This document shows, piece by piece, positions 3,107 to 21,349 of a stretch of 23,238 nucleotides of DNA. Numbering within the stretch: the first letter of the stretch is position 1; every line of letters starts with the position of its first letter. Origin of the DNA: Oscillospiraceae bacterium (GTDB lineage Bacteria; Bacillota; Clostridia; Oscillospirales; Acutalibacteraceae). The notes under the pieces are model-generated. The model did not search any database. It had not been told where the DNA came from and saw only the letters and a list, made by a program, of their open reading frames with translations. The stretch is taken from positions 1-23,238 of the forward strand of contig DXWE01000002.1 in NCBI GenBank assembly GCA_019417045.1. The letters are read 5' to 3'. A program made the translations under genes and the position numbers.

Positions 3107-4053
3107 AAAAGCTGTTTACGGGCAAATTTGACTATATCGCCTCCCGCAAATTCTGCATCTTTCTCTCCCTGGCCGTGATCCTGATTGGGATCGTGTGCAA
3201 CCTGATTTTCGGCACGGATCTGGACGTCACCTTCAAGGGCGGCACCCTGATTAAATACAGCTATTCCGGAGACTTGAACCTGTCAGAGGTGGCCGACTAT
3301 GTCAGCAGTGATTTCGGCTACGAGGGCGTAGACGTCAAATCCTCGTCCTCGAGCGGCCTGCAGATGATCGATGTATACACGACCAACAGCCTGACCATGG
3401 AGGAGCAGGAGGCATTTACGGCCAAGCTGACCGAGCGGTTTGCGGCAAACGGGCTCGAGCAGGACCGGGTCAACTCCCTGAGCGCGACCATGGGAACTCT
3501 GTTCTTTGTCAAATGCCTGGTGGCCATTGCGCTGGCCGGCCTGTTCCTGATTCTCTATGTCTCCCTCCGGTTCCGCAAGATCGGCGGCTGGACTGCGGGC
3601 GTCATGGCGGTGGCCGCGCTGGTGCACGACATGCTGATCGCCTACTTTGCGTTTGTGATCTTCCGCATCCCACTGGATGGCAACTTCGTCGCCGTGTTGC
3701 TGACCATCCTCGGGTATTCGCTGAACGACACGATCGTCATCTATGACCGGATCCGTGAAAACCGGCGCCTGATGGATGCCAAGACGCCGATTGCGGAAGT
3801 GGTGAACACCAGTCTGAACCAGTCCTTCGCCCGTGTGTTCAACACGAGCCTGGCGACGATCGTCGCCATCGGGACGGTGGCGGTCATCTCCCTGATTCTC
3901 GGACTGGACGCCATTATCAGCTTTGCTGTTCCCATGCTGGTGGGCCTGATCGCCGGCTTCTACTCCTCCACCTTCCTGTGTGTCCCGCTGTGGGCGCTGT
4001 GGACGGAGAAACGACAGGCCAAAAAGGCAGCGACCGCCAAATCCAGGAAATGA
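3103..4053 (+). CDS. secF: Protein translocase subunit SecF
   Basis: 316 aa. An N-terminal TM helix, a periplasmic domain, then an RND-like TM bundle. ATGA overlap with the secD stop gives the canonical secDF arrangement. Confidence 0.9.
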   Translation: MKKLFTGKFDYIASRKFCIFLSLAVILIGIVCNLIFGTDLDVTFKGGTLIKYSYSGDLNLSEVADYVSSDFGYEGVDVKSSSSSGLQMIDVYTTNSLTMEEQEAFTAKLTERFAANGLEQDRVNSLSATMGTLFFVKCLVAIALAGLFLILYVSLRFRKIGGWTAGVMAVAALVHDMLIAYFAFVIFRIPLDGNFVAVLLTILGYSLNDTIVIYDRIRENRRLMDAKTPIAEVVNTSLNQSFARVFNTSLATIVAIGTVAVISLILGLDAIISFAVPMLVGLIAGFYSSTFLCVPLWALWTEKRQAKKAATAKSRK

Positions 4054-4068
4054 TACTCACTTAGAAAT

Positions 4069-4106
4069 GGAGTGGGGCCGGAATCCGGCCCCACTCCTCT
4101 TTTTTG
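4069..4106 (+). terminator. Rho-independent terminator of secDF
   Basis: GGAGTGGGGCCGG-AAT-CCGGCCCCACTCC is a 13-bp GC-rich stem, followed by TCTTTTTTG, 15 nt after the secF stop. Confidence 0.85.
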
Positions 4107-4339
4107 CACAGCGTTTTTTTAACCGGCCAGGCGTGTATGTTTGTGAGATTCTATTCCCTTAACGCTGCAAGATTTCTCTGCCGTCTTTCGCCTCCCTTTT
4201 GCCTCGGACGGCGGGACCCTTCCCTCTCCCGGACCGCGTCCCATCCGTTTGGGTGCGCGCACCCCTTCGCCGCCCCATCGTCGGCAGGGGAGGGAAGCCC
4301 CCTTCTGATCCTGCCTGTTTCCGTTCCTTTCTCCGGACA

Positions 4340-4379
4340 AACACATACGCCCGCGGGAATACCCGCGGGCGTATGTGTT
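4340..4379 (-). terminator. 18-bp perfect palindromic hairpin (AACACATACGCCCGCGGG-AATA-CCCGCGGGCGTATGTGTT), 24 nt downstream of the GH5 gene stop. Probable terminator of the GH5 operon.
   Basis: Perfect inverted repeat read from the sequence. On the minus strand it is followed by TTTGTCC, a weak U-tract. It sits between convergent secF (+) and GH5 (-). Confidence 0.55.
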
Positions 4380-4402
4380 ATCTATCCAGGATACCAGAAA
4401 CC

Positions 4403-6811
4403 TTATGCAGAGGCCACCGTGGCCTGCAGAATCAACCGGGCATCCGTGCTGTTGATCGCGCCGTTCCCGTCCACATCCGCCGCCGCCTGCTGCTGCGCAT
4501 CCAGCTCGATCAGCTCCACGGTGAACTGCAACACCAGCCGGGCGTCGCTGCTGTTCACAAGCCCGTCGCCGTTGACGTCTCCCTTTTGCCCCGTGGACAG
4601 GCTGACGGGCATCACCTCGATATAGTCGATCACTGCCTCGCCGCCGAACCCGCCGGAGACCTCAATTGTGTTGACACCGGCCTGCAGCTTCAGTTGGACG
4701 GTCCTGTGCTGTACCATCTCCTCGCTTCCGTTCCGGATCGGGGCCATCTGCACCACGGTACCCGTCCCCTCGCCCGCACGGATGAGGACCGTTTTGTCCG
4801 CATTGCCACTATAGGCGATCGTCACATCATAGGTGCCCTCGGCGGCGACCTCCACCGTAAAGGCCAGCCGATTCAGGGAGGACCAGTTGCCGGCCGTATA
4901 CGCCGCGTTCTTGTCCGAGCCGTTCATCAGCCCGCCGACCGCCTGGCCGCCGGAATACTGGCTGCCGCTCTCGGTGCTGCCCTGCCCGGCGGGAACCGCG
5001 TCCGCGTCCTCCGCCTCATACCGCTGGCTGGACGGGTTCTCCTCGGTCTGTTCTACGGTGGCGGACGGCAGATTCAGCTCGATATAATCGATATTCGCCC
5101 AGGCGCCGCTGCCGACCACACCCGAGACACAGATCTCGTTGGATCCCTCCTGCAGCGTCACGGGAATCGTCTTGGTCCACAGAACATCCCAGCTGCCCGT
5201 TCCCTGCTGCGACAGCTCGACGGTCTGCTGGACGCCGTTCACCTTTACGAGAATGGTCTTGTCGTCGTCCCCGTTATACCCGATCCGGAGCTGATACTCG
5301 CCGGCCTTTTCCACCTGTAACCGATACTGTACGTAGCGGATGTTAGACCAGTCTGCACTCACCTGACTGATCGGGATCTCCGACCCGAGCCCACCCGCGG
5401 CGAGCTTGCCGGAGAAGAAGGTTTGCCGCTCGAATCCGGTCGGCGCATCCTCCTTGTCCATGTTGGAATTCACCACCGTCGCGTAGACGGGATCCTCTGC
5501 CTCAAACCGGGTCCAGCCCGTCTCCACCGCCGGAGACTGGCTGTCGGCGATGGCCTCTTTCACATAGTCGACCGTACTGGTTTTGTTGAAACCCAGAGTG
5601 CTCAGGGTGCTACCCCACTTCTGTTTGATCGTCTCGAAAGAGTCGTTGTAGGGATCGACTTCCGGCAGATCCTTCCAGTACCAGAACCAGTTGCCGTTGT
5701 TGCCCTTGCCGCCCTTGTAGCTCCAGGTCGTCCAGTGAATCCCATACTTGGTATATACATCGAAGGATTCCATATTGCTGAACTCGCCCATATACCCGGC
5801 GACGCCATATGCCTTCATGTTCTCGAACAGATCCTGGACCTCGTTTTCAAACGCCCAGATATAATCGGAATAGGTGTGGATCTGGTACATCATGTTGTAC
5901 CAGCCCTCCTCTGCGGGATCCGGCAGATAATTGCTGCTCCAGATACCCTCCAGCGTGATGATATGGCGGGTATCCACTTCACGGATCGCGGCCACCATCC
6001 GCCGGTAGATGCTGTTCGTCATCTCCTGGGTGGAGGAGAGCTGGGGCAGATAGAAATGCTCGTGCCCCCAGCTGCTGCCGTTGTTCTGCGGCTCGTTCAT
6101 GATGTCGTACGCCGCCACCGCCGGCTCGTCCTTATACCGCTCGGCGATCGCCACCCACAGCTTCTCCATGGCGGCCTGATACGCCTCATTGGTGTACAGA
6201 TCGTTTTCCTCCAGCGTCCCGGTGCTGTGATTGAGGCTCTGCCCACCGGGGCAGCCGTGCATGTCGAGGATCACGTACATCCCGCGCCGGCTCGCCTGCT
6301 CGATGGCCCAGTCCAGCCGCTGGAACCCGGGGTTGTCGTCCGGATCCTCGGTGATCCAGTCCCCTTCGGGATTGAGCATGAAGTTGCGGTACCAGAACGG
6401 GATCCGCACCACATTGCAGCCGGCATCGCGGACGACGTCGAAATCATAGCCGGTGATCCAGTTGTCCTGATACGTGTCAAACAGCTCCTGGATCTGCTCC
6501 TGCGTAAAGCCACGGGACTCAAAGACCTCGATCGTGTTGAGGTTGGCCCATTCGTTGTCCTCCCCTGCGATCGGGCACATCCAGTTTTCCTGAATCAGCC
6601 AGCCGCCGAAGTTGGTGCCCTGCAGGAGCACCTTTTCCCCCCGCTGGTTGACGATATCGGTGCCCTGCACATGCAGGAAATCCGCCTCCGTCAGCTGCTC
6701 ACTGGTGCTTGCCGCCGCACTCGTCAGCGGGACGCTCGTCCCCGCCAGCAGGATCGAACACAGCATGCACAGAGACAGCAGTGCGGAAATTCCCCGTTTC
6801 ATCCGTTTCAT
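4403..6811 (-). CDS. Cellulosomal GH5 glycoside hydrolase, 802 aa: signal peptide, GH5 catalytic module, two CBM6/35-like modules, C-terminal type-I dockerin
   Basis: GH5 hallmarks are present: NEP acid/base ('DIMNEPQNNG') and GEF nucleophile ('GYMGEFSN'). Two beta-sandwich modules each end in '..IDYIEL/V', as in CBM6/35. The C-terminus carries duplicated calcium-binding dockerin repeats 'GDVNGDGLVNSSDARLVLQ' and 'ADVDGNGAINSTDARLILQ'. Confidence 0.85.
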   Translation of the reverse strand: MKRMKRGISALLSLCMLCSILLAGTSVPLTSAAASTSEQLTEADFLHVQGTDIVNQRGEKVLLQGTNFGGWLIQENWMCPIAGEDNEWANLNTIEVFESRGFTQEQIQELFDTYQDNWITGYDFDVVRDAGCNVVRIPFWYRNFMLNPEGDWITEDPDDNPGFQRLDWAIEQASRRGMYVILDMHGCPGGQSLNHSTGTLEENDLYTNEAYQAAMEKLWVAIAERYKDEPAVAAYDIMNEPQNNGSSWGHEHFYLPQLSSTQEMTNSIYRRMVAAIREVDTRHIITLEGIWSSNYLPDPAEEGWYNMMYQIHTYSDYIWAFENEVQDLFENMKAYGVAGYMGEFSNMESFDVYTKYGIHWTTWSYKGGKGNNGNWFWYWKDLPEVDPYNDSFETIKQKWGSTLSTLGFNKTSTVDYVKEAIADSQSPAVETGWTRFEAEDPVYATVVNSNMDKEDAPTGFERQTFFSGKLAAGGLGSEIPISQVSADWSNIRYVQYRLQVEKAGEYQLRIGYNGDDDKTILVKVNGVQQTVELSQQGTGSWDVLWTKTIPVTLQEGSNEICVSGVVGSGAWANIDYIELNLPSATVEQTEENPSSQRYEAEDADAVPAGQGSTESGSQYSGGQAVGGLMNGSDKNAAYTAGNWSSLNRLAFTVEVAAEGTYDVTIAYSGNADKTVLIRAGEGTGTVVQMAPIRNGSEEMVQHRTVQLKLQAGVNTIEVSGGFGGEAVIDYIEVMPVSLSTGQKGDVNGDGLVNSSDARLVLQFTVELIELDAQQQAAADVDGNGAINSTDARLILQATVASA

Positions 6812-6830
6812 CTGACAACCGACCCCTTTC

Positions 6831-8759
6831 TTAACCGCTGACAGCCGTCTGTAAAATCAGGCGGGCGTCAGAACTGTTGATCTGCCCATTCACATCCATA
6901 TCCGCCAGCACCTGCTCGTCGATCGTCAGCTCCCTCAGGTCGACGGTCGCCTGCAGGACCATACGCGCGTCGCTGCTGTTGACAAAGCCATCCTGATTGA
7001 CATCCCCCTGCCGGATAGCCGGCTTGGGTTTGCCGATATCGATATAATCGTAGTTGATCCAGTTGTCATTGGCGGCTCCCTGCGTGCTGCCGGTGAGCCA
7101 GAGAACGGTGGTACCGGCGGGAAGCTCCACATCCCACGACCGTGTCTGCACCGTCTGCCAGCCGCCTGTTGAGGGCAGCGCCAGCCGCTCCCAGCTCTCC
7201 GCCGGCTGATCCCCCACCCGGAGATAGGCAATCACCTGTGTGGTGGTGGTCGCGTATCCGATCCGCAGCCGGTAGACCCCGGCCTCCGGCACGGTCACCG
7301 TGAATTTGACATACGGCACATTCGACCAGTCGGAGGCGATCTCCGAAACAGTCTGGATCTCGGCGTCGGTATTCAGGTTGCCGATAAACTGCCGGCCGGA
7401 GAAATTCTCGTTGTTGGTATTGAGCTTGGCGTTCTCGCTCCACTCGCCCTTTTCCGCCTCATACCGCGTCCAGGACTCCACCAGACTGTCGTCCGGGTCC
7501 ACATACGCGGCGGCCCGCACGGCGTCGATCACCCAGTCGTTGGCCTGGAAATTGCCGCTGTCCGTGCGCAGGGCACTGCCCCATTTCTGCTTGATCGTCT
7601 CAAAGGAATCACTGGTGGTATCGGCGATCGGCAGATCCGAGACAAACCAGCCCCAGCCACCGACCTGCTTGCCCGCCTTATACGTCCAGGTGGTCCAGCT
7701 GATCCCGCTCTGCTCGCAGATCGCGATCCCGTCCAGGTTGCTGAACTCGCCGACATAGCCCGCCACGCCGTAGCGGTTGCACACGTCCACCAGGCTGTCG
7801 ATGCCGCTCTGGAATCCCTCGTTATCGTTGTACAGGTGAAGCTGGTACATCATGTTGGTCCAGCCGTACTGTGCCGGATCGGGCAGATTGGAGATGCTCC
7901 AGATCCCCTCGATCGTGATCACATGGTCCGGATCCTGCTCCCGGATCACCGGGATCATCATGGCATAGATCTTGTTGGAGAGCTCCCACGAGGTGGGGTC
8001 ATTATAGGGATCCCAGTTGTTCGGGCCGTCGTAACCCGCGTTGTTCTGCGGCTCGTTCATCACGTCGTAAGCCGCGACCGCGGGCTCGTCCTTGTACCGC
8101 TCGGCAATCGCCGCCCACAGGCTCTTCATGGCCTCCTGGTAGACGGTATTGGTATAGAGCTCATTCTTGCCGAGCGTACCACAGCAGTGATCCTTGCTCT
8201 GCCCGCCGGGACAGCCGTGCATGTCCAGGATCACATACATCCCGCGCTCTTTGCACTCCTCAATCACCCAGTCCAGCCGCAAAAACCCGGGATTTTCGTC
8301 CGGATTCTCGTTGATCCAGGTGCCCGAGGCACTGGTCATGAAGTTGCGGTACCAGAACGGCACGCGCACCACATTGGCGCCTGTCTCCGCAATGAGATCC
8401 AAATCATATTCGGTGATCCAGTTGTCCTGATAGGTGTCAAACAGCTCCTGGATCTGCGCCTCGGTAAAGCCCCGGTTTTGCAGCGCTGCAATGCTGTCGA
8501 GGTTGGCCCACTGCCGGTCCTCGCCGTTGACCGGGCACATCCAGCTCTCCTGGATCAGCCAGCCGCCGAGGTTCACCCCGCGCAGCACCACCGTCTCCCC
8601 CTTGCGGTTGACCAGCTTTCCGTCCTCCACCGACAGGAAATCCCAATAATTCAGCGGCTGCCGGGCCGAAGAGGCAGGCAGAGCCGCCGCCGGCAGCGCC
8701 AGCCCGATCAGCAGGCAGACCGACAGAATTCCCGATACCAGTTGCTTCCACTTCTTCAT
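6831..8759 (-). CDS. Cellulosomal GH5 glycoside hydrolase, 643 aa: signal peptide (MKKWKQLVSGILSVCLLIGLALPAAA), GH5, one CBM35-like module, type-I dockerin
   Basis: Paralog of the flanking GH5 genes (LRGVNLGGWLIQESWMCP, NEPQNN, GEFSN). Dockerin repeats are 'GDVNQDGFVNSSDARMVLQ' and 'DMDVNGQINSSDARLILQ'. The start is the ATG at 8759 (RBS GGGAG); the tool ORF runs further upstream to 8960. It lies 19 bp from the next gene, so co-transcription is likely. Confidence 0.85.
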   Translation of the reverse strand: MKKWKQLVSGILSVCLLIGLALPAAALPASSARQPLNYWDFLSVEDGKLVNRKGETVVLRGVNLGGWLIQESWMCPVNGEDRQWANLDSIAALQNRGFTEAQIQELFDTYQDNWITEYDLDLIAETGANVVRVPFWYRNFMTSASGTWINENPDENPGFLRLDWVIEECKERGMYVILDMHGCPGGQSKDHCCGTLGKNELYTNTVYQEAMKSLWAAIAERYKDEPAVAAYDVMNEPQNNAGYDGPNNWDPYNDPTSWELSNKIYAMMIPVIREQDPDHVITIEGIWSISNLPDPAQYGWTNMMYQLHLYNDNEGFQSGIDSLVDVCNRYGVAGYVGEFSNLDGIAICEQSGISWTTWTYKAGKQVGGWGWFVSDLPIADTTSDSFETIKQKWGSALRTDSGNFQANDWVIDAVRAAAYVDPDDSLVESWTRYEAEKGEWSENAKLNTNNENFSGRQFIGNLNTDAEIQTVSEIASDWSNVPYVKFTVTVPEAGVYRLRIGYATTTTQVIAYLRVGDQPAESWERLALPSTGGWQTVQTRSWDVELPAGTTVLWLTGSTQGAANDNWINYDYIDIGKPKPAIRQGDVNQDGFVNSSDARMVLQATVDLRELTIDEQVLADMDVNGQINSSDARLILQTAVSG

Positions 8760-8875
8760 TGTACTACTCCCATTCCTTCTGTGGCATACGCGGGTCTGCA
8801 ACCCGTTTGCCGGATGTGTGCGCGCCAAAGCCGCCGCTCGCCCTGCGCTCGTATGAATTTCTCCTCGTGCGCCCC

Positions 8876-10180
8876 TCAGGCGGCGATTTGTTCCCGGACC
8901 AGCCGGATCAGCTCGGTATTCTCCTGGAAATGCCCTTTGGTGCGCAGGGGATTCCCCCATTTTTCCAGTATTTGCTCATAGGTGTCGGTATAGGGATCCA
9001 CGGCCGCGGGACTTCCCCACACCCAGAACCAGTTGCCCCAGTTGCCGGTGCCTCCCTTGTAGCTCCAGGTGGTCCAACTCAGACCGAGTTCCTCGCAGAT
9101 GGCGATCCCGTCCAGGTTGCTGAACTCGCCGACATACCCGGCCACCTTCCAGTCAGACACCGTGCGAAGGGTCTGCCGGGCGATATCGCGAAATGCGTCG
9201 GTCTCGTCGTACAAATGCACCTGATAGAGCATGTTGGTCCACCCGTAATCGGCGGGATCCGGCAGGTTTTCCGCCCGCCAGATGCCCTGCAGAGAGATCA
9301 CATGCGCCGGATCCACCTCCCGGATCGCGGCCACCAGCCGCGCATAGACCGCATTATACGAATCCCACGCCGCGGGATCCCAGGAATCCACATAATTCGG
9401 ATGGTCCTCAAACCCGCCGTTGTTCTGCGGCTCGTTGAGCACATCATACGCGGCCACCACGGGGCTGTCCTTATAGCGGGCCGCGATCGCCCTCCACAGG
9501 GACTCGGTGGCCAGCTGGCAGGTCTCATCGGTATACAGCCGGTTCTCGCCGAGCGTGCCACAGCAGTGGTTCAGGCTCTGTCCGCCCGGCGCGCCGTGCA
9601 GATCGAGGATCACATACATCCCGCGCTCACCGCACGCCTCGATCAGCCAGTCCAGCCGCAAAAACCCGGGATTCTCGTCGGGATTCTCGGAAATCCAGGT
9701 GCCCGTATCATCCGTCATGAAATTGCGGTACCAAAACGGCACGCGCACCACGTTGCAGCCGGTTTCGGCGATGAGATCCAGATCATATTCGGTGATCCAG
9801 TTGTCCTGATAGGTGTCAAAGAGCGTCTGGATCTGTTCTGCCGTAAACCCCCGCGATTCAAAGACCTCAATGGTGTCGAGATTGGCCCATTCCCCGTCTT
9901 CCCCCACGATCGGACACATCCAGTTCTCCTGGATCAGCCAGCCGCCGAGGTTCACCCCGCGCAGACGGACCGTCTCCCCGTTGCGGTTGACCAGCCGCGA
10001 CTCCTCCACCGAGAGGAAATCCTCATCGGTGATGTGCGCGGGCCGGGACGCCACCGGCCCCTGAGAAGGCGCGGACTCCTCCTGCGAGCCGGCCGGATCC
10101 GAGGCGCACGCCGAAAGCAGCAGCAGCCCGGCGGCGCAGATTGCCAAAACCCCTCTTTTCCACATCGAACGAACCTGCAT
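8876..10180 (-). CDS. GH5 glycoside hydrolase lipoprotein, 434 aa: lipobox signal peptide, catalytic module only, no CBM or dockerin
   Basis: The N-terminus 'MQVRSMWKRGVLAICAAGLLLLSAC' contains an L-L-S-A-C lipobox. The catalytic domain is about 70% identical by eye to the two downstream paralogs and carries the NEP and GEFSN motifs. RBS AAAGGAG lies 7 nt before the ATG. Confidence 0.8.
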   Translation of the reverse strand: MQVRSMWKRGVLAICAAGLLLLSACASDPAGSQEESAPSQGPVASRPAHITDEDFLSVEESRLVNRNGETVRLRGVNLGGWLIQENWMCPIVGEDGEWANLDTIEVFESRGFTAEQIQTLFDTYQDNWITEYDLDLIAETGCNVVRVPFWYRNFMTDDTGTWISENPDENPGFLRLDWLIEACGERGMYVILDLHGAPGGQSLNHCCGTLGENRLYTDETCQLATESLWRAIAARYKDSPVVAAYDVLNEPQNNGGFEDHPNYVDSWDPAAWDSYNAVYARLVAAIREVDPAHVISLQGIWRAENLPDPADYGWTNMLYQVHLYDETDAFRDIARQTLRTVSDWKVAGYVGEFSNLDGIAICEELGLSWTTWSYKGGTGNWGNWFWVWGSPAAVDPYTDTYEQILEKWGNPLRTKGHFQENTELIRLVREQIAA

Positions 10181-10226
10181 ACAGCACTCCTTTTTCTCAT
10201 AATCGGGATGTCAAAACAGCTCATAC

Positions 10227-10269
10227 ATCTTACCATATAGAAAAACGTTTTTCAATATAAAATTGAAAA
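10227..10269 (-). promoter_or_regulatory. Putative promoter of the GH5 operon: TTGAAA -35 (complement of 10250-10255), 17 bp, TAAGAT -10 (complement of 10227-10232). Overlapped by the palindromes GAAAAACGTTTTTC (10240-10253) and TTTTCAAT-ATAAA-ATTGAAAA (10249-10269).
   Basis: An AT-rich island sits in otherwise GC-rich DNA immediately upstream of the first GH5 gene. The hexamers and palindromes were read directly. Confidence 0.3.
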
Positions 10270-10432
10270 AACTGTATAGATACCCAACAATTTCACCAGA
10301 GTTCTGGGCAGCTTTTCCAAAAACGCACTTTCGTTTTTGTGAGGATTGCCGCCGGTTATTCCGTCATGAGCGGACATGTGCCTGCCGGTTTTACCGTGCC
10401 TTCCCCCGCTCTACTTTTTCCCGGGGAATGCA

Positions 10433-10465
10433 AAAGCTGTGTGCGGCAGACTGCCGCACACAGCT
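10433..10465 (-). terminator. Near-perfect 15-16 bp inverted repeat (AAGCTGTGTGCGGCAG / CTGCCGCACACAGCTT) downstream of floT. Probable terminator.
   Basis: It lies 16 nt after the floT stop on the minus strand. It is followed by TTTGCATTCC, a short U-tract. Confidence 0.5.
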
Positions 10466-10480
10466 TGTTGGGAATTTGGT

Positions 10481-11893
10481 TTATTGGGCGGATCCCTCGG
10501 ACACGTCCTTTTCGGCCGCGATCTCCCTGCCGAGGAACTCGGGAATCTGCAATCCCGCCATCTTGAACGTCTCGTTCAGCGGAGGAATGGATTTCATCAG
10601 GTTGCTCAGGAAGTTCGCGGTGGTGGAGCTGCCATTTTCGCCGTTCATGCTGTCCCACACGGTGACCTTGTCGATGTGGAGGTTCTTGACCGCCTCCACC
10701 TGGATCTTGGTCAGCTCCTCGATCTTGTCGACGAGCATCAGCTGCACGGCCTCGGCCGACCCGCCGGCCGCCTTGACAATCTCCTCAAACCCGGCCGCCT
10801 GCTTGGACAGGATCTCCTGCACGCCCCGCGCCTGCGCCTCCATCTTGGCATAGATGGCGTCCGCCTCGCCCTTGGCGAGCCGGCGGGCCTGTTCGGCCTC
10901 GGCTTCCGCCTCGAGCACCTTGCGCTCCTTCTCGATCCGGGCTTTGACGATGACATCCGCCTCTTGGGTGGCGAGTTCGCGGGCGGCACGCGCCTTTTCC
11001 GCGACCTCCTCGGCCGCATATGCCTCTTCGCGCGCCTTGGCCTCGGCGAGCTTTTCAGCGGTCACGGCACGGCGCAGGGCGTCGGCCTCCTGCTCGCGGC
11101 GGGTGGCATCGGACTGCGCGATCTCCGCCTTGGAGGTGTTTTCCCCGTCCACAGCCGTCGCGTTGGCCGCCGCCACCGAGATCCGCTGGTCGCGCACCGC
11201 GTTTGCCTCGCCGATGGAGCCCTCGCGGTTGCGCTCCGCCACCGAGATCCGGGCCTCATTGATGGCCTTGGCGGCCGCCTCTTTGCCGAGCGCCTCGATG
11301 TATCCCGATTCGTCGCTGATATCGGTCACGTTTACGTTGATCAGCCGCAGGCCGATCTTGCGCAGCTCGCTCTCCACGTTCGAGGACACCGCCGCCAGGA
11401 ATTTGTCGCGGTCGGTGTTGATCTCCTCGATCTGCATGGTCGCGATGATCAGGCGCATCTGGCCGAAGATGATGTCCTTGGCGAGATCCTGGATCTCCTG
11501 CGGACGCAGCCCGAGCAGCCGCTCGGCCGCGTTTTGCATGGTGCCCGGCTCGGTCGAGATCCCGACCGTGAACCGTGCAGGCACGTCGATCCGGATGTTC
11601 TGCCGCGACAGGGCGCTCTTGAGATCCACGCTCAGCGACATGGGCGTCAGATCGAGATACCGGTAATCCTGGATCACCGGCCACACAAAGGCCGCGCCGC
11701 CGTGAATGCACCGGGCACTGCGCGCGGTGCCGTCCTTGTTCAGCCCCACCTTACCGTAGATGACCATCACCTTGTCGGACGGGCACCGGCGATAGCGGCT
11801 CATCAGCCACATAAACAGGCCGAACACCACCAGCACCGCCGCCACAATGGCGACTACCCCCGCCACGGGGATGTTGAGCAACAACCCTCTCAT
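10481..11893 (-). CDS. floT: Flotillin (SPFH/band-7 family, FloT/YuaG-like), 470 aa
   Basis: N-terminal hydrophobic hairpin, an SPFH domain, then a long Ala/Glu-rich coiled-coil (EAEAEAEQARRLAKGEADAIYAK...) and C-terminal tail typical of bacterial flotillin-1-like proteins. RBS AAGAAGGAG. Confidence 0.85.
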   Translation of the reverse strand: MRGLLLNIPVAGVVAIVAAVLVVFGLFMWLMSRYRRCPSDKVMVIYGKVGLNKDGTARSARCIHGGAAFVWPVIQDYRYLDLTPMSLSVDLKSALSRQNIRIDVPARFTVGISTEPGTMQNAAERLLGLRPQEIQDLAKDIIFGQMRLIIATMQIEEINTDRDKFLAAVSSNVESELRKIGLRLINVNVTDISDESGYIEALGKEAAAKAINEARISVAERNREGSIGEANAVRDQRISVAAANATAVDGENTSKAEIAQSDATRREQEADALRRAVTAEKLAEAKAREEAYAAEEVAEKARAARELATQEADVIVKARIEKERKVLEAEAEAEQARRLAKGEADAIYAKMEAQARGVQEILSKQAAGFEEIVKAAGGSAEAVQLMLVDKIEELTKIQVEAVKNLHIDKVTVWDSMNGENGSSTTANFLSNLMKSIPPLNETFKMAGLQIPEFLGREIAAEKDVSEGSAQ

Positions 11894-11950
11894 GTTTCCG
11901 CACTCCTTCTTTTAGTTAAAATATTGTATAATTTCTTAAAATAATGCCCA

Positions 11951-12712
11951 TTATACCGGAATGACCACCAGGATATCTCCCGGCGCCACACCGATCACCC
12001 GTACCTGCCGACCGTTTTCGAGAGGCGCCCGGTCGGAGACGGCGTCAAAATCCAACAGCCGTTCCTGTACCATGACCGTGACCTTTCCCTTGCCTCCCTG
12101 TGGGATGGTGAGATACACCTCTCCCACCTGGCCAACGGCGTTGCGCACGTCCAGGTTGCCGCTCTGCTGGAGCTTCAACGCCGCCCTCATCAGCCAGGCG
12201 ACCAGGAACAACGCAAGCAATCCCGCCAGCAGCGCGATCGTGACCGCCAGCGCCGGATGCAGCCCGCTGTCGAGCGTGGCAATCGCGGTCCAGCTCCCAA
12301 TGCACAGGAACGCGACAACGCCGCGGAAGGTGAACCAGTGCAGACCGTGCGCGTGCTGCGCGCCCGGGTCGGGCGCGTCGGTTTCGGGGAAGACATCCGG
12401 CTGTCCGTCCCCGGTGGTATCCACACCGCCGTCCACCCAGACGCCGTCCGCATCGGCAGCACCGTCGCCGTTCAAATCGAAGCCACCGTCCACCTGAGCG
12501 CCGTCCGGCATGGCGCCGGCGTCAAAGTCCACACCGCCGACATCCGTACCGACCGCATCCCCTTCCATCCCGCCGCCGAACGCGTCGCCGGTGGTGTGAC
12601 CGAGTCCGATAAACATCAGGACCGTCTGGATGAGCAGCAACAGCGTCGCCGGAAAGGCGACGGCGTACAGCGCCTGGGACAGCGTCGACAGACTGTTCCA
12701 CCACTCCGTCAT
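11951..12712 (-). CDS. NfeD-like membrane protein (YuaF-type flotillin partner), 253 aa, with an ~90-aa Asp/Gly-rich insertion
   Basis: TM helices plus a C-terminal OB-fold (GEVYLTIPQGGKGKVTVMVQ...GRQVRVIGVAPGDILVV) characteristic of NfeD. It sits directly upstream of flotillin, as in B. subtilis yuaF-floT. It overlaps the upstream gene by 4 bp (ATGA). Confidence 0.75.
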   Translation of the reverse strand: MTEWWNSLSTLSQALYAVAFPATLLLLIQTVLMFIGLGHTTGDAFGGGMEGDAVGTDVGGVDFDAGAMPDGAQVDGGFDLNGDGAADADGVWVDGGVDTTGDGQPDVFPETDAPDPGAQHAHGLHWFTFRGVVAFLCIGSWTAIATLDSGLHPALAVTIALLAGLLALFLVAWLMRAALKLQQSGNLDVRNAVGQVGEVYLTIPQGGKGKVTVMVQERLLDFDAVSDRAPLENGRQVRVIGVAPGDILVVIPV

Positions 12713-13335
12713 TTCGCATCTCCCTCCTTTTCCGAGAGGGGTGCCGTCCCCTCTCCCTCTTCTTTAGTATGTTGAATCCTCTCTATATATAACGTCCTGG
12801 CAGACGCCATCAGCAGGGCCGCGCTGATATTCAGCAACATCAGCTCCAGCGCCGTCTGCAATCGGGATTTGGCATCCGGCACGGGGCCCGTATAGTCTTT
12901 CAGTTGCTGTTCCACCAGGTCGTGAATGGTCCGGTGTGTAATGGCCTCCTGCTGCTCCAGCCGGAGCAGCAGCCCGCCGACCAGGGAATACAGCTGCGGC
13001 TCGGGAATGATATCGTCCGCACGGCTGTCCACCCGGCCGTTGATAAAGCCCAGCAGCGTGACAATCTGGTCCAGCTGCATGGTCGGTCGGAGCAGGTTGA
13101 TGAGCAGAATCCGCGCCACCTGCTGCGCGCCATATTTCTTGTTGGTTGGGGCCTCCACCCATCCCCGCTTCACCCAGTTCTGGATGGTCGTCGCCGTCAG
13201 TCCGGTCATCTGTGAGACCTGAGAGAGCTGTAGTCCTCCCCCCGACACTGCGAGGATCGGCTCCAGCACGGAGAACAGATGGTCCTGCTGTCCCGGCGGC
13301 AGCGGGAGGATTGTGCCCGGCAATACCGTTTGCAT
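12709..13335 (-). CDS. DUF1836-type, MerR-like HTH protein (putative transcriptional regulator), 208 aa
   Basis: 'LQLSQVSQMTGLTATTIQNWVKRGWVEAPTNKKYGAQQVARILLINLLR' matches the MerR-type HTH plus wing pattern. RBS AGGAGG lies 6 nt upstream. It is the first gene of the nfeD-floT operon. Confidence 0.6.
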   Translation of the reverse strand: MQTVLPGTILPLPPGQQDHLFSVLEPILAVSGGGLQLSQVSQMTGLTATTIQNWVKRGWVEAPTNKKYGAQQVARILLINLLRPTMQLDQIVTLLGFINGRVDSRADDIIPEPQLYSLVGGLLLRLEQQEAITHRTIHDLVEQQLKDYTGPVPDAKSRLQTALELMLLNISAALLMASARTLYIERIQHTKEEGEGTAPLSEKEGDAK

Positions 13336-19300: not shown

Positions 19301-19348
19301 ATGATTCTGATACCTCCCGGCCGGAGGTCGGGGAAAGGAAGTAGTACT

Positions 19349-20215
19349 ATGGACAACTGCAAGCGGATCCTGCTGGTGTGCACAGGGAACACCTGCCGCA
19401 GCCCGATGGCAGAGGGATTGCTGCGCGCGCTCGCCAGGGAGCGCGGGCAGGCGGTGGAGGTGCTCAGCGCAGGGCTGTGTGCGGACGGGTCCCCGGCGAG
19501 TCCACAGGCTGTCGCTGTCATGGCGGAACGCGGAATCGATATCTCCCGCCACGTGTCCCATCCGGTCACGCCGGAACTGTGTGCGGCAGCAGACATGATC
19601 GGCGTGATGTCCGCCGGCCACCGGGATTTGCTCATTCGGCTGTTCGCAGTGCCGGCGGAGAAGGTGGTCTTGCTCGGCGGGGGGATCCCCGATCCGTTTG
19701 GCGGCACCCTGGAAGACTACCGCCGCACCCGGGACGCGCTGGAGAAAGCGGTGCGGGTGCTGCTGCCGAACTGCCGGATTGTGCGGATGGAGGAGCGCCA
19801 CATCGAGCCGCTCGCCGCGCTGGAGAAAGCGGTGTTCTCCACCCCGTGGACGGCGGACGGCCTGCGGGAGGAGCTGCAAAATCCTCTCGCGGTCTTTCTG
19901 GTGGCGGAGGACGCCGCACAGGGCGCCGTGCTTGGCTATATCGGCCTGCACCACGTGCTGGACGAGGGGTTTGTGACCAATCTCGCGGTGGATCCGGCCC
20001 GCCGGCGGGAGGGGATCGGCGGTGCCTTGCTGCAGGCTGCCTGCGCCTATGGCCGGGAGCACGGGCTCTCCCGCCTGGCGCTTGAGGTGCGGGCGGGCAA
20101 CCGGGAGGCGATCGCGCTGTACGAGGCCGCGGGCTTTACGCGCGACGGCCTCCGCCCCGGGTTTTATGACGCCCCCCGGGAGGACGCTGTGCTCTATTCC
20201 TATCATTTCCGGTGA
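19349..20215 (+). CDS. rimI: Fusion protein: YwlE-like low-molecular-weight protein (Arg/Tyr) phosphatase domain (aa 1 to ~145) fused to the ribosomal-protein-alanine N-acetyltransferase RimI (GNAT) domain (aa ~150 to 288)
   Basis: N-terminal P-loop 'LLVCTGNTCRSPMAEG' (CX5R(S/T)) plus the 'IPDPFGG' D-P general-acid loop make an LMW-PTP/YwlE domain. The C-terminal 'IVRMEERHIEPLAALEKAVFSTPW...LEVRAGNREAIALYEAAGF' is a RimI GNAT. It is one continuous ORF with no stop or frameshift. RBS GGAAAGGAAG. It lies immediately upstream of tsaD. Confidence 0.8.
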   Translation: MDNCKRILLVCTGNTCRSPMAEGLLRALARERGQAVEVLSAGLCADGSPASPQAVAVMAERGIDISRHVSHPVTPELCAAADMIGVMSAGHRDLLIRLFAVPAEKVVLLGGGIPDPFGGTLEDYRRTRDALEKAVRVLLPNCRIVRMEERHIEPLAALEKAVFSTPWTADGLREELQNPLAVFLVAEDAAQGAVLGYIGLHHVLDEGFVTNLAVDPARRREGIGGALLQAACAYGREHGLSRLALEVRAGNREAIALYEAAGFTRDGLRPGFYDAPREDAVLYSYHFR

Positions 20216-20341
20216 GTGCGCCGCGCGAACCCGTCTACTGTCCCCTCCCTATTGGGTAAGCGTCGCCGCATGAGCGGTTTGCCGCTGCTCTTCTCCCGGC
20301 AGAGGGTTTTTGTCCCCCATTCTTTTTCAGAGGTGATCCCC

Positions 20342-21349
20342 ATGCGGATTCTGGCCATCGAATCCTCCTGCGACGAAACCGCCGCCGCCGTGGTGGCGGA
20401 CGGCCGGCAGGTGCTGTCGAATATTGTCGCCTCCCAGGTGGAGGAACACCGGCTGTACGGCGGCGTGGTGCCGGAGATTGCGAGCCGCCGCCACGCCGAG
20501 GCAATCTCCGGCGTGGTGCGGGAGGCTCTGCAGCAGGCGGGAACCCCCCTGTCCGCCATCGACGCGGTGGCGGTGACCTATGCGCCGGGGCTGATCGGCG
20601 CGCTGCTCGTCGGGGTCAATTTCGCCAAGGGTCTCTCGCTCGCGTCGGGGCTCCCGCTCATCCCGGTGCACCATCTGCGCGGGCACATCGCCGCCAACTA
20701 TCTGGCGGATCCCGATTTGCACCCGCCGTTTCTCTGCCTGATCGTGTCGGGCGGGCACACCCATCTGGTACAGGTGGATGACTACACCCGGTTTCGGGTA
20801 CTCGGCCGCACGCGGGACGACGCGGCGGGGGAGTGCTTTGACAAGGCGGCCCGCGCGATGGGCATGCCCTATCCGGGCGGCATCGCACTCGACCGCCTGG
20901 CAGAGACCGGCGACCCCCACGCGTTCTCGTTTCCCACCCCCCATGTGGAGGGGAGTGCCTACGACTTCAGTTTTTCCGGGCTGAAAACCGCGGTGCTCAA
21001 TCTGCTCCACCATGCGCAGCAAAAGGGAGAAACTCTCCCGCTGCCGGACGTGTGCGCCTCCTTTCGCGGCCGGGTGGTGGACATCCTCTGCGACCACACC
21101 CTGCGTGCGGCCAAAGAGCTGCACAGCTCCGCACTGGTGCTGGCCGGCGGGGTGTCGGCCAACCGGGAGCTGCGCCGCCGCATGACGTCTCTGTGCAGGG
21201 AGAACGGTCTCTCCCTGCATATGCCGCCGTTGCCCCTGTGTGGGGACAACGCCGCGATGATCGGCTCGCAGGCCTTTTATGAGTTTGCCGCAGGCCATGT
21301 CGGCGGGGCGGATTTGAACGCCGTCGCCACCCTGCCGATTGAAGGATAG
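20342..21349 (+). CDS. tsaD: tRNA N6-adenosine threonylcarbamoyltransferase TsaD (Kae1/YgjD family)
   Basis: 'MRILAIESSCDETAAAV', 'PLIPVHHLRGHI' and 'GGVSANRELR' are canonical TsaD motifs, including the HxxH metal site. 335 aa. The true start is the ATG at 20342. Confidence 0.9.
   Translation: MRILAIESSCDETAAAVVADGRQVLSNIVASQVEEHRLYGGVVPEIASRRHAEAISGVVREALQQAGTPLSAIDAVAVTYAPGLIGALLVGVNFAKGLSLASGLPLIPVHHLRGHIAANYLADPDLHPPFLCLIVSGGHTHLVQVDDYTRFRVLGRTRDDAAGECFDKAARAMGMPYPGGIALDRLAETGDPHAFSFPTPHVEGSAYDFSFSGLKTAVLNLLHHAQQKGETLPLPDVCASFRGRVVDILCDHTLRAAKELHSSALVLAGGVSANRELRRRMTSLCRENGLSLHMPPLPLCGDNAAMIGSQAFYEFAAGHVGGADLNAVATLPIEG

Follow-up and report, generated by a model that had tools for sequence, protein, structure and literature searches.

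Three co-oriented GH5 genes lie side by side in a 23,238-nt stretch of bacterial DNA (the window), and they raise the question of how one catalytic family comes to be packaged in three forms, what it cleaves, and whether the dockerins carried by two of the forms mean that the host builds a cellulosome. The DNA belongs to an uncultured gut member of the Oscillospirales, Acutalibacteraceae/Oscillospiraceae-like.

Gene organization and conservation

The gene bounds were taken from the open reading frame listing and from the genes annotated in public copies of the same locus:

8876..10180, minus strand: gene A, a predicted 434-aa GH5 lipoprotein without accessory module
6831..8759, minus strand: gene B, 642 aa, signal peptide-GH5-CBM6/35-dockerin
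4403..6811, minus strand: gene C, 802 aa, signal peptide-GH5-CBM6/35-CBM35-dockerin

The mechanical open reading frame of gene B extends to an ATG at 8960; the start was taken as MKKWKQ at 8759, with a GGGAG ribosome-binding site, in agreement with the public gene calls and the orthologue. The three genes are co-oriented and each contains a GH5 module, as the sequence-only reading had described, and the gaps that it gave, 116 bp between A and B and 19 bp between B and C, agree with these gene bounds. The order A-B-C-SecDF is also found in a sister species (locus L087), where the orthologues are 80-83% identical, with dN/dS of 0.14-0.19 at a dS of about 0.7. The gene C orthologue there has 800 aa and is 83% identical, and for gene B the orthologue (P0043) shows 89% identity across the catalytic core and 81% across the whole protein. 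The trio consists of real, maintained genes under purifying selection.

Transcription unit

The borders and the interior of the putative unit contain the following features:

10431..10470, minus strand: hairpin and T-run at the end of the upstream flotillin-like gene, the 5' border of the unit
10227..10255, minus strand: promoter-like site 5' of gene A from the consensus scan (TTGAAA, 17-nt spacer, TAAGAT, with a TG extension)
8760..8875, minus strand: A-B intergenic spacer of 116 nt, in which terminator-like structure is absent
4341..4378, minus strand: 17-bp perfect hairpin followed by TTTGT, 25 nt past the gene C stop

The site at 10227..10255 may work as a promoter, and gene A has an AAGGAG ribosome-binding site 7 nt ahead of its ATG. 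Both border hairpins fold far better than shuffled sequence: region 10400-10480 reaches -39.5 kcal/mol (z -5.5) and region 4330-4402 reaches -46.4 kcal/mol (z -8.6), with 0 of 200 shuffles as good in either case. The second hairpin, which the consensus scan overlooked because its T-run is short, is likely the terminator of the three-gene unit. The A-B spacer is no more stably folded than its shuffled versions (z +0.87), and the terminator scan found no minus-strand terminator within 4403-10180, which bears out the earlier statement that convincing internal terminators are lacking. With a promoter-like site and a strong hairpin before A, another hairpin after C and none inside, the apparent operon is plausible, and A, B and C would be co-transcribed as one unit. 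It is quite unlikely that B and/or C have promoters of their own and are regulated apart from A. The 116-bp gap could hold a promoter, and the scan gave weak matches to a promoter at 8787-8758 and 6985-6958; however, the former overlaps the gene B start codon, the latter lies inside the dockerin-coding region of gene B (6834-7007), upstream of the B-C gap, and the B-C gap itself is merely 19 bp. The absence of a minus-strand terminator within the unit and the conservation of both gap sizes in the sister species also argue against separate promoters. A TACAAT match at 8758-8763, which overlaps the gene B start codon, is not credible as a promoter.

Catalytic modules

Each gene has one Pfam PF00150 match:

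8879..10027, minus strand: gene A GH5 module, E 4e-30
7500..8654, minus strand: gene B GH5 module, E 2.1e-30
5537..6700, minus strand: gene C GH5 module, E 1.7e-30

In gene A numbering, the acid/base is E250 in NEP and the nucleophile is E352 in GEFS, and R146, H195, N249, H322, Y324 and W369/W372 are further invariant residues. The alignment shows that all canonical GH5 catalytic residues are invariant in A, B and C, so that the shared catalytic family stands; the motifs quoted earlier are present, except that gene A has HGAPGGQS and not HGCPGGQS. The AlphaFold2 model of gene A (residues 50-434, mean pLDDT 93.1) is a high-confidence (beta/alpha)8 fold. Its top Foldseek match is 9KU5, a GH5_22 exo-beta-xylosidase (E 2.5e-25, TM 0.80), and other GH5 structures follow far behind at E 1e-15 or weaker. 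The same Geobacillus thermodenitrificans enzyme (GE32/GE39; PDB 9KU5/9KUA) is the best sequence match (E 1e-36), with 32% identity over 259 aligned residues, and has in common with the present proteins the fold, the NEP acid/base and the WTTW(T/S)YK strand. The next-best sequence matches, at E 1e-17 to 1e-11, are the GH5_9 fungal exo-beta-1,3-glucanases (Candida albicans Exg, 1CZ1/1EQP; Aspergillus oryzae AoBgl, 8Z2W), which share the N-terminal GGWL-x-E-x-W and HG-x-PG-x-Q motifs with A, B and C but are more distant than GH5_22, fungal and single-domain, with TM of 0.5-0.6.

Placed by nearest matches, the three modules belong to a single subfamily-level clade nearest GH5_22. The recent paralogy proposed from the sequence found no support: the modules are 55-63% identical, they are no nearer to one another than they are to homologues from other clostridial families, and an exclusive A+B+C clade receives just 7% bootstrap support. 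A, B and C are old paralogs that form no exclusive clade.

Targeting, CBMs and dockerins

Outside the catalytic modules, the three proteins differ:

10106..10180, minus strand: gene A signal peptide with lipobox, MQVRSMWKRGVLAICAAGLLLLSA before C25, then a low-complexity tether, ASDPAGSQEESAPSQGPVASRPAH
7008..7499, minus strand: gene B CBM6/CBM35-superfamily module, Pfam CBM_6 27.9 bits, just below the 28.9 cut-off
6834..7007, minus strand: gene B type-I dockerin, Ca-binding repeats DVNQDGFVNSSD and DMDVNGQINSSD, Dockerin_1 33.8 bits (cut-off 22.9)
5033..5536, minus strand: gene C first CBM (CBM6/35 superfamily), counterpart of the B CBM, Pfam CBM_6 27.0 bits (cut-off 28.9)
4583..5032, minus strand: gene C second CBM (CBM35), Pfam CBM_35 35.8 bits (cut-off 28)
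4406..4582, minus strand: gene C type-I dockerin, DVNGDGLVNSSD and DVDGNGAINSTD, Pfam Dockerin_1 46.5 bits (cut-off 22.9)

The lipobox of gene A, LLLLSA-C25, is read directly in the sequence and fits the PROSITE PS51257 pattern; it is conserved in the orthologues P0012 and P0013 (LLLAAC and LLLGAC in orthologues), and the protein is predicted to be lipidated. In B and C, no G, A or S precedes any N-terminal Cys, and these proteins thus have ordinary signal peptides. Among the closest homologue clusters (about 120), most are single-domain proteins of 400-440 aa that carry either a lipobox or a membrane anchor at the N terminus, and gene A appears to have the ancestral form of the enzyme clade. 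The contrast in targeting between a lipoprotein and two CBM-dockerin forms is therefore borne out. To describe it as cell-surface versus scaffoldin-bound may be false, since cohesin proteins are often cell-anchored themselves; A, B and C might then all stay with the cell and differ in how far they sit from the membrane.

The CBM35-like modules of B and C, recognized in the earlier reading, are supported by Pfam, by PDB sequence matches and by their mutual homology. The B CBM matches 8zvk (isomaltodextranase CBM35, E 4.6e-9) and also the Cellvibrio Cel5B CBM6, and the first C CBM matches PDB CBM35 entries at E 3e-6 to 1e-5. The first C CBM is 30% identical to that of B (E 9e-24) and 34% identical to the second C CBM (E 2e-20), and all three are mutually homologous at E 9e-12 to 9e-24. 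The type-I dockerins, likewise claimed before, both score above the Dockerin_1 cut-off. In both repeats of both dockerins, all Ca-binding positions and the SSDAR/STDAR helices are kept, and the dockerins are likewise conserved in the sister species. The two dockerins are 67% identical, above the identity of the catalytic cores, as expected if they have a common binding partner, and B and C would share one docking type. Among the window and the 82 loci scanned (80 species loci, plus the present locus in two public copies), dockerins are confined to this lineage.

Substrate

The substrate is most likely beta-1,3-glucan, possibly beta-1,6-branched (laminarin, yeast or fungal wall glucan), and not cellulose, as suggested by the genomic context of the homologues. 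In 19 of the 80 species loci, the order is regulator, ABC permeases, binding protein, cytoplasmic GH30 and GH5; 61 of the 80 have no informative neighbour. A GH16 domain is fused to or adjoins the GH5 homologue in four loci, a GH55 exo-beta-1,3-glucanase lies near it in six (4PEW, E 8.5e-120) and a GH94 laminaribiose phosphorylase occurs in two (6GGY, E 1e-270); locus L010 encodes a GH161::GH17-like protein. Published bacterial beta-1,3-glucan loci combine GH161, GH94, GH16 and GH30 with an ABC transporter (PMC6484121), and this context of the homologues points to beta-1,3-glucan rather than cellulose. In the present organism, a GH161-like phosphorylase lies ~12 kb from gene C, ~9 kb past the left end of the window and separated from gene C by unrelated genes; within the window, no transporter, GH30 or beta-1,3-glucan gene adjoins the operon. 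The earlier hint toward an exo-beta-1,3-glucanase-like GH5, and not the classical cellulases, is sound, with GH5_22 nearest, GH5_9 next and homologue loci rich in beta-1,3-glucan enzymes; its mannanase suggestion is without support.

The main rival holds that these are GH5_22-type exo-beta-xylosidases or xylo-oligosaccharide hydrolases of a xylan-use operon, whose CBM6/35 modules bind xylan chain ends, and we regard it as rather unlikely. It draws on the nearest solved and characterised relatives, 9KU5 and GE39, and on the closest characterised relative of GE39, PcXyl5 of Phanerochaete chrysosporium (PMC6020330); several CBM6/35 PDB matches come from xylan-active enzymes, and Anaerocolumna xylanovorans is among the cultured species with homologues. 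However, identity to GE32 is just 32%, and the recurrent neighbour clusters that were annotated include GH16, GH55, GH94-LBP, GH161, GH30 and GH3 but not GH10, GH11 or GH43. Moreover, GE39 also cleaves pNP-beta-glucoside (PMC6020330). Against the beta-1,3-glucan reading, the closest characterised relative, Geobacillus GE39/GE32, is a pNP-beta-xylosidase with a beta-glucosidase side activity (PMC6020330). This enzyme is reported as one GH5 catalytic domain without CBM or dockerin, in a hemicellulose locus (PMC6020330); unlike it, the present proteins are predicted to be exported, and their context points to beta-1,3-glucan.

Dockerins and the cellulosome question

The sequence-only reading took the dockerins to establish that the host builds a cellulosome, which dockerins alone do not do. 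A dockerin makes a cohesin partner likely; it shows neither a scaffoldin nor a cellulose-degrading complex. A search for cohesins in the window and among the called genes of the adjoining 10 kb on its left side (~33 kb in all, a small fraction of the genome) gave none. It is very unlikely that the three are cellulase-type enzymes of a cellulosome producer that break down plant cell walls while attached either to the cell or to a scaffoldin with several cohesins. The two type-I dockerins are bona fide and have symmetric repeats, CBM6/35 modules are common in cellulosomal hemicellulases, and true cellulosome producers exist among Oscillospirales (PMC4081043). Nevertheless, the module is far from the classical GH5 cellulases (Foldseek E no better than 1e-15, whereas GH5_22 gives 2.5e-25), the homologue loci contain enzymes for beta-1,3-glucan and not for cellulose, and dockerin-rich, cohesin-poor species are known, such as Ruminococcus albus 8, with dozens of dockerins and cohesin undetected (PMC4081043). 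In addition, the missing cohesin in the ~33 kb counts against such a complex. The closest housekeeping relatives of the host are Acutalibacteraceae/Anaeromassilibacillus-like gut MAGs, which are not known to be cellulolytic.

The same missing cohesin would fit dockerins that have no partner at all, with B and C as free secreted, CBM-targeted enzymes and the dockerin in another role or a relic; dockerins lacking matching cohesins are documented (PMC4081043, as cited there from Peer et al. 2009). We consider this unlikely: the Ca-binding positions and helices are intact in both repeats of both dockerins, both are kept in the sister species, inside genes under purifying selection, their mutual identity exceeds that of the catalytic cores, as for a common partner, and the cohesin search covered a small part of the genome.

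Relation to known systems and proposed model

Like the Oscillospirales cohesin-dockerin systems (the R. flavefaciens cellulosome, R. albus), of which the R. bromii amylosome is another, B and C combine a secreted GH, CBMs and a C-terminal two-repeat type-I dockerin. In these systems, enzymes of a given GH family may occur both with and without a dockerin within a single genome (PMC4081043). The present locus differs from these systems in that no cohesin was found in ~33 kb, the catalytic family stands outside the classical cellulases, and the dockerin-free partner is a predicted lipoprotein from the same operon. Gram-positive polysaccharide utilisation loci, which include GH161/GH94/GH16/GH30 beta-1,3-glucan clusters (PMC6484121), unite a surface-tethered GH, an ABC importer and a cytoplasmic GH or phosphorylase, and Lachnospiraceae homologues of gene A fill the tethered-GH role in them (regulator-ABC-binding protein-GH30-GH5; in L010, GH30-GH5::GH16-GH161-GH94). 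Unlike in those loci, the GH5 genes of the window lie apart from transporter and cytoplasmic enzyme, are triplicated, and two carry dockerins. The locus is a tidy example of an already known enzyme packaging.

Taken together, the probable reading is a three-gene operon of old retaining GH5 beta-glycanase paralogues, GH5_22-like and exo-beta-1,3-glucanase-like, with A tethered and B and C in CBM-dockerin form. Gene A would keep the usual form of its clade, lipid-anchored on the outer face of the cytoplasmic membrane by a flexible tether of ~25 residues, while B and C would have gained one or two CBM6/35 modules and the C-terminal type-I dockerin. Given their ordinary secretion signals, CBMs and dockerins, B and C are probably secreted, glycan-bound and docked to at least one cohesin-bearing protein whose gene lies elsewhere. 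The putative cohesin binding would go with a division of labour in which B and C may act on polymer or particle-bound glycan away from the membrane, and A may trim the released oligosaccharides beside the importers.

Gene layout and transcription unit

Three minus-strand genes encode a predicted GH5 lipoprotein (A), a GH5-CBM6/35-dockerin protein (B) and a GH5-CBM6/35-CBM35-dockerin protein (C). The G+C content of the window is approximately 60%, and the features that define the unit are as follows.

Features of the GH5 gene region
10481-12712, minus strand: flotillin-like/NfeD-like pair, flank on the A side
10255-10227, minus strand: promoter-like TTGAAA-17-TAAGAT with a TG extension, from a consensus scan
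8876-10180, minus strand: gene A, 434 aa
6831-8759, minus strand: gene B, 642 aa
4403-6811, minus strand: gene C, 802 aa
1571-4053, plus strand: SecD/SecF pair, convergent to the GH5 genes, flank on the C side

Gene A is separated from B by 116 bp and B from C by 19 bp, the same values as in the sequence-only reading. The start of B was placed at the MKKWKQ start at 8759, which has a GGGAG ribosome-binding site, is used by the public gene calls and matches the beginning of the orthologue; the mechanical ORF from ATG 8960, overlapping A, was discarded. A hairpin with a T-run closes the upstream flotillin-like gene (fold z -5.5), and a 17-bp perfect hairpin lies 3' of the C stop codon (fold z -8.6). 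Within the unit, a minus-strand scan found nothing terminator-like, in agreement with the earlier view, and the A-B spacer folds no better than its shuffles (z +0.87). Based on the promoter-like site, the flanking hairpins and the lack of an internal terminator, we infer that co-transcription of A, B and C is plausible.

Four long plus-strand ORFs over the GH5 genes (4199-5320, 5423-6841, 7836-8981 and 8759-10240; 373-493 aa) were rejected as genes, since they are antisense frames in a 60% GC region and their Arg/Pro/Gly-rich translations are typical of high-GC antisense. The public gene calls at 4199-10240 comprise the three minus-strand genes only.

Two further arrangements were observed in the window. 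Just upstream of the GH5 operon, a co-oriented minus-strand set (10481-13335) comprises a 470-aa SPFH protein of the flotillin-like type, a membrane protein of 253 aa and a DUF1836/MerR-like protein; the membrane protein has an Asp/Gly-rich acidic region and no Pfam match, and from reading its sequence we presume that it is NfeD-like. At 19301-20215 (plus strand), one ORF encodes a fusion of two domains, a low-molecular-weight phosphotyrosine phosphatase and a GNAT (RimI-like) acetyltransferase, directly upstream of tsaD (20216-21349).

Exact window proteins occur on only 4-6 public contigs. The window aconitase is 83-86% identical to MAG proteins labelled Clostridia, Acutalibacteraceae, Oscillospiraceae/Ruminococcaceae and Anaeromassilibacillus sp., a homology that places the host at family level only.

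One catalytic module in three old duplicates

All three proteins match PF00150 (GH5), with E-values of 1.7e-30 to 4e-30 and scores of 105-107 bits (cut-off 23.5 bits). The AlphaFold2 model of A residues 50-434, the one module modelled, has a pLDDT of 93.1 and alternating strands and helices forming a (beta/alpha)8 barrel, and every top Foldseek match to it is a GH5 structure. The canonical GH5 set consists of Arg, His, Asn-Glu (the acid/base, at the end of strand 4), His, Tyr, Glu (the nucleophile, on strand 7) and Trp. The corresponding residues, R146, H195, N249-E250, H322, Y324, E352 and W369/W372 in A numbering, are invariant in A, B, C and 43 homologues; the role of each in the three proteins is presumed from alignment to GH5 and established knowledge. 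The shared motifs quoted earlier stand apart from one slip, A having HGAPGGQS and not HGCPGGQS.

The three catalytic cores are pairwise 55-63% identical (A-B 63%, A-C 59%, B-C 58%) and retrieve one and the same homologue set, so the claim of a single shared module holds at the level of one subfamily-level clade. The further assumption that the modules are recent paralogues is contradicted by the same comparisons, because A is as similar to homologues of unrelated Clostridia as the cores are to each other, and an exclusive A+B+C clade receives only 7% bootstrap support. In the bootstrapped neighbour-joining analysis, each orthologue group is recovered at 100%, with B+C at 19%, A+C at 22% and A+B at 0%. 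Recent gene conversion among the three genes was also considered and rejected, since their DNA repeats are colinear, with blocks 65-84% identical, and contain no identical tracts.

In a sister species (locus L087 and related contigs), the order A'-B'-C'-SecF of the orthologues is the same, with orthologue identities of 80-83% and dN/dS of 0.14-0.19 at dS about 0.7. In a third relative, a short contig carries the orthologue A'' and, after it, another gene. The conservation of the trio, the low dN/dS and the weak A+B+C clade together argue that A, B and C are old duplicates of one subfamily-level clade, maintained by selection.

Relationship of the module to GH5_22

In a PDB sequence search with the module, the Geobacillus 'putative beta-xylosidase GE32' (9KU5) ranks first at E 1e-36, and fungal exo-beta-1,3-glucanases come next (E 1e-17 to 1e-11). 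Similarly, 9KU5 is the best Foldseek match of the A model (E 2.5e-25, TM 0.80), with a wide gap to all other GH5 structures. The PDB title of 9KU5 reads GH5_22 exo-beta-xylosidase. As GE32 is only 32% identical to the module, over 259 aligned residues, the label was kept at 'GH5_22-like', which names the nearest labelled structure. The enzyme GE39, a relative of GE32 at 96%, cleaves pNP-beta-xyloside and has beta-glucosidase side activity (PMC6020330). NCBIfam holds no model matching A, B or C, a literature search on 9KU5 gave no paper, and a search on GH5_22 in gut Firmicutes found nothing relevant.

In the sequence alignment, the GE32 chain deposited in 9KU5 has MNAP in place of the GH5 NEP. 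Presumably the deposited protein is an acid/base mutant (Glu to Ala) prepared for the substrate complex, and automated comparisons would mis-score the catalytic motif as a result.

A mannanase reading, raised from the sequence motifs, was dropped, since mannanase structures matched weakly (E 4e-4 or weaker, except for one bifunctional enzyme at E 3e-11) and the homologue context contains no mannan genes.

Targeting signals and accessory modules

Lipoprotein signals were judged by a positive n-region, a hydrophobic h-region and a lipobox [LVI][ASTVI][GAS]C whose Cys falls at roughly positions 15-35. The N-terminus of A, as read from the sequence, carries R4, K8 and R9, the h-region VLAICAAGLLLL and the lipobox L22-S23-A24-C25; its start, MQVRSMWKRGVLAICAAGLLLLSA-C25, leads into a low-complexity tether. 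The pattern is textbook and is kept in the orthologues as LLLAAC and LLLGAC, which upholds the earlier call, and A is a predicted lipoprotein. B and C also begin with a positive n-region and an h-region; since only V or L precedes every early Cys, they fail the lipobox and appear to carry ordinary secretion signals.

The second CBM of C (C2) scores 35.8 bits against Pfam CBM_35, above the 28-bit cut-off. The B CBM and the first CBM of C (C1) score 27.9 and 27.0 bits against CBM_6, slightly below the 28.9 cut-off, and have PDB CBM6/35 sequence matches at E 4.6e-9 and 3e-6, respectively, so that their membership of the CBM6/CBM35 superfamily is supported at the sequence level. The three are mutually homologous (B-C1 30% identity, E 9e-24; C1-C2 34%, E 2e-20; B-C2 26%, E 9e-12), and C consequently looks like the B-type architecture plus one extra CBM of the same kind. 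Their PDB neighbours bind diverse ligands, including beta-glucans, xylan, alpha-glucans and uronic acids.

Dockerin_1 (PF00404) is matched at 33.8 bits in B and 46.5 bits in C (cut-off 22.9). A type-I dockerin has two repeats of about 22 residues, each with a calcium loop of the form D-x-[ND]-x-[DN]-G-x-[IV]-[ND]-x-x-D and, after it, a helix, and both repeats are visible in B and C, in line with the earlier assignment. The two dockerins are 67% identical, above the identity of the catalytic cores that they accompany. Each has intact SSDAR/STDAR helices along with two intact Ca-binding repeats, and these features are kept in the sister species.

Homologue loci and the likely substrate

More than 1,500 homologues of the module were found at E 1e-10 or better, and the typical one is a single-domain protein of 400-440 aa that carries either a lipobox or a membrane anchor at its N-terminus. 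This prevalence of single-domain, membrane-tethered forms indicates that A has the ancestral form and that B and C are derived. Among all loci scanned, dockerins are confined to the window lineage. Context was surveyed in 80 species-level loci from GTDB species representatives, namely gut Lachnospiraceae, Oscillospiraceae and some termite-gut Treponema. The window organism is not among these representatives, where the best match is only 56% identical.

Loci relevant to substrate
About 4000-11200 in each of L030-L034, L039-L041, L044, L045, L048, L049, L053 and L055: Lachnospiraceae operon LacI/AraC-ABC permease-permease-binding protein-GH30-GH5
8300-19374 of L010 (uncultured Acetatifactor sp. 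MAG, CANQPH010000026.1): laminarin-type locus, two of whose genes are unusual fusions
1-2122 of L083 (window organism, left extension), about 9 kb beyond the left end of the window: 1091-aa GH161-like protein

The first arrangement is conserved in 19 of the 80 loci. Its binding lipoprotein (about 550 aa) has no Pfam match, its GH5 enzyme is on the surface, and its GH30 is cytoplasmic and SrfJ/glucocerebrosidase-like (2WNW, E 4.5e-123). A search of the accessible literature for a GH30_1 plus GH5 locus returned nothing relevant, and the operon appears uncharacterised.

Enzymes of beta-1,3-glucan metabolism accompany some of the homologues. A GH55 exo-beta-1,3-glucanase lies within 10 kb of a GH5 homologue in six loci (L018, L023, L025-L027 and L075); these are 600-660 aa lipoproteins with no Pfam match that match SacteLam55A (4PEW, E 8.5e-120). 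A GH16 domain is fused to or adjoins GH5 in four loci, and a GH94 laminaribiose phosphorylase is found in two (6GGY, E 1e-270). In L010, the order is GH30, a GH5::GH16 fusion (P0021, 752 aa), a GH161::GH17-like fusion (1480 aa) and GH94 laminaribiose phosphorylase, a layout that agrees with bacterial gene clusters for beta-1,3-glucan utilisation as published (PMC6484121). In the window organism itself, the L083 protein is Pfam-negative, and its C-terminal 707 residues match GH161 phosphorylases (9QQK, E 1.6e-129; 9H8V, E 7.5e-130); a role as a beta-1,3-glucan phosphorylase is probable. Its gene is followed by others for a GH35 of 935 aa, a kinase of the FGGY family and a PALP enzyme.

The xylan-specific families GH10, GH11 and GH43 are absent from the recurrent neighbour clusters annotated. 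Taken with the beta-1,3-glucan enzymes in the homologue loci, this makes beta-1,3-glucan the best-supported guess for the substrate, with a probability of about one half. The main rival substrate, xylo-oligosaccharides, draws its support from the GH5_22 relationship, and it is the annotated neighbourhoods that favour beta-1,3-glucan.

Some Anaerocolumna/Anaerosporobacter-like genomes encode additional giant GH5 proteins of 905-1926 aa upstream of the operon, as seen in L042 (86-5866), L039, L043, L045 and L055. The L042 protein (1926 aa), the one scanned, contains five CHB_HEX_C_1 and five Fn3_assoc repeats and a Big_2 domain.

Dockerins and the cellulosome question

The dockerins had been taken to establish that the host builds a cellulosome, a conclusion that the present results do not sustain. 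No cohesin is present in the window, nor is one encoded by the genes called over the adjoining 10 kb on the left. A dockerin-profile search aimed at further dockerins or cohesins in the lineage returned only fragments of 63-103 aa, with nothing informative in the two gene contexts examined. Moreover, a comparative study of ruminococci found R. albus strains with dozens of dockerins and one cohesin or none (PMC4081043), so that a dockerin alone is insufficient evidence of a cellulosome. As the dockerins of B and C are conserved, symmetric and under selection, we consider it fairly likely that they have some cohesin partner. Equally, they may dock on a single cell-anchored cohesin or into a non-cellulolytic assembly. 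The R. bromii amylosome is an example of a non-cellulolytic cohesin-dockerin assembly.

For these three enzymes, a role as cellulases is not supported, the module being GH5_22-like or exo-glucanase-like and the homologue context that of beta-1,3-glucan; no cellulose-specific feature was seen in A, B or C, to which the statement is confined.

Proposed working and significance

Overall, the sequence-only reading is confirmed as an observation, one GH5 module in three packagings, and its interpretation survives in part. A single transcript would supply all three enzymes. A, once lipidated, would reside on the membrane, beneath the wall or inside it, and act on diffusible oligosaccharides beside the importers. 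B and C would be secreted, bound to glycan through their CBMs and docked on one or more cohesin proteins, which would place the same chemistry on polymer or particles; the extra CBM of C may alter avidity or ligand range.

A more ambitious proposal, which we regard as improbable, is that this Oscillospirales lineage, presumably of the human gut, recruited a normally membrane-tethered GH5 clade directed at beta-1,3-glucan into a cohesin-dockerin assembly, not described so far, for fungal, yeast or algal beta-glucan, not cellulose or starch, with the lipoprotein copy kept in the operon as the last membrane-proximal step before uptake.

Well-known precedents exist for lipoprotein glycanases, for CBM-dockerin enzymes and for sets of paralogues that differ in targeting, and the locus is a neat, unsurprising arrangement of a GH5 lipoprotein with CBM-dockerin enzymes that involves no new mechanism.

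If the inference holds, the locus offers a compact natural comparison in which a single operon has long kept the same catalytic module in three modes of deployment: lipid-anchored, with a dockerin and one CBM, and with a dockerin and two CBMs. The trio would be useful for studying the effects of tethering and CBM number on activity towards soluble versus insoluble beta-glucan. The analysis also flags a large GH5_22-like clade, for which no characterised member was found, spread across gut Lachnospiraceae and Oscillospirales within ABC/GH30 loci and probably acting on dietary or fungal beta-1,3-glucan. This clade, together with a possible beta-glucan-directed cohesin-dockerin system in an Oscillospirales lineage presumably of the human gut, is worth following.
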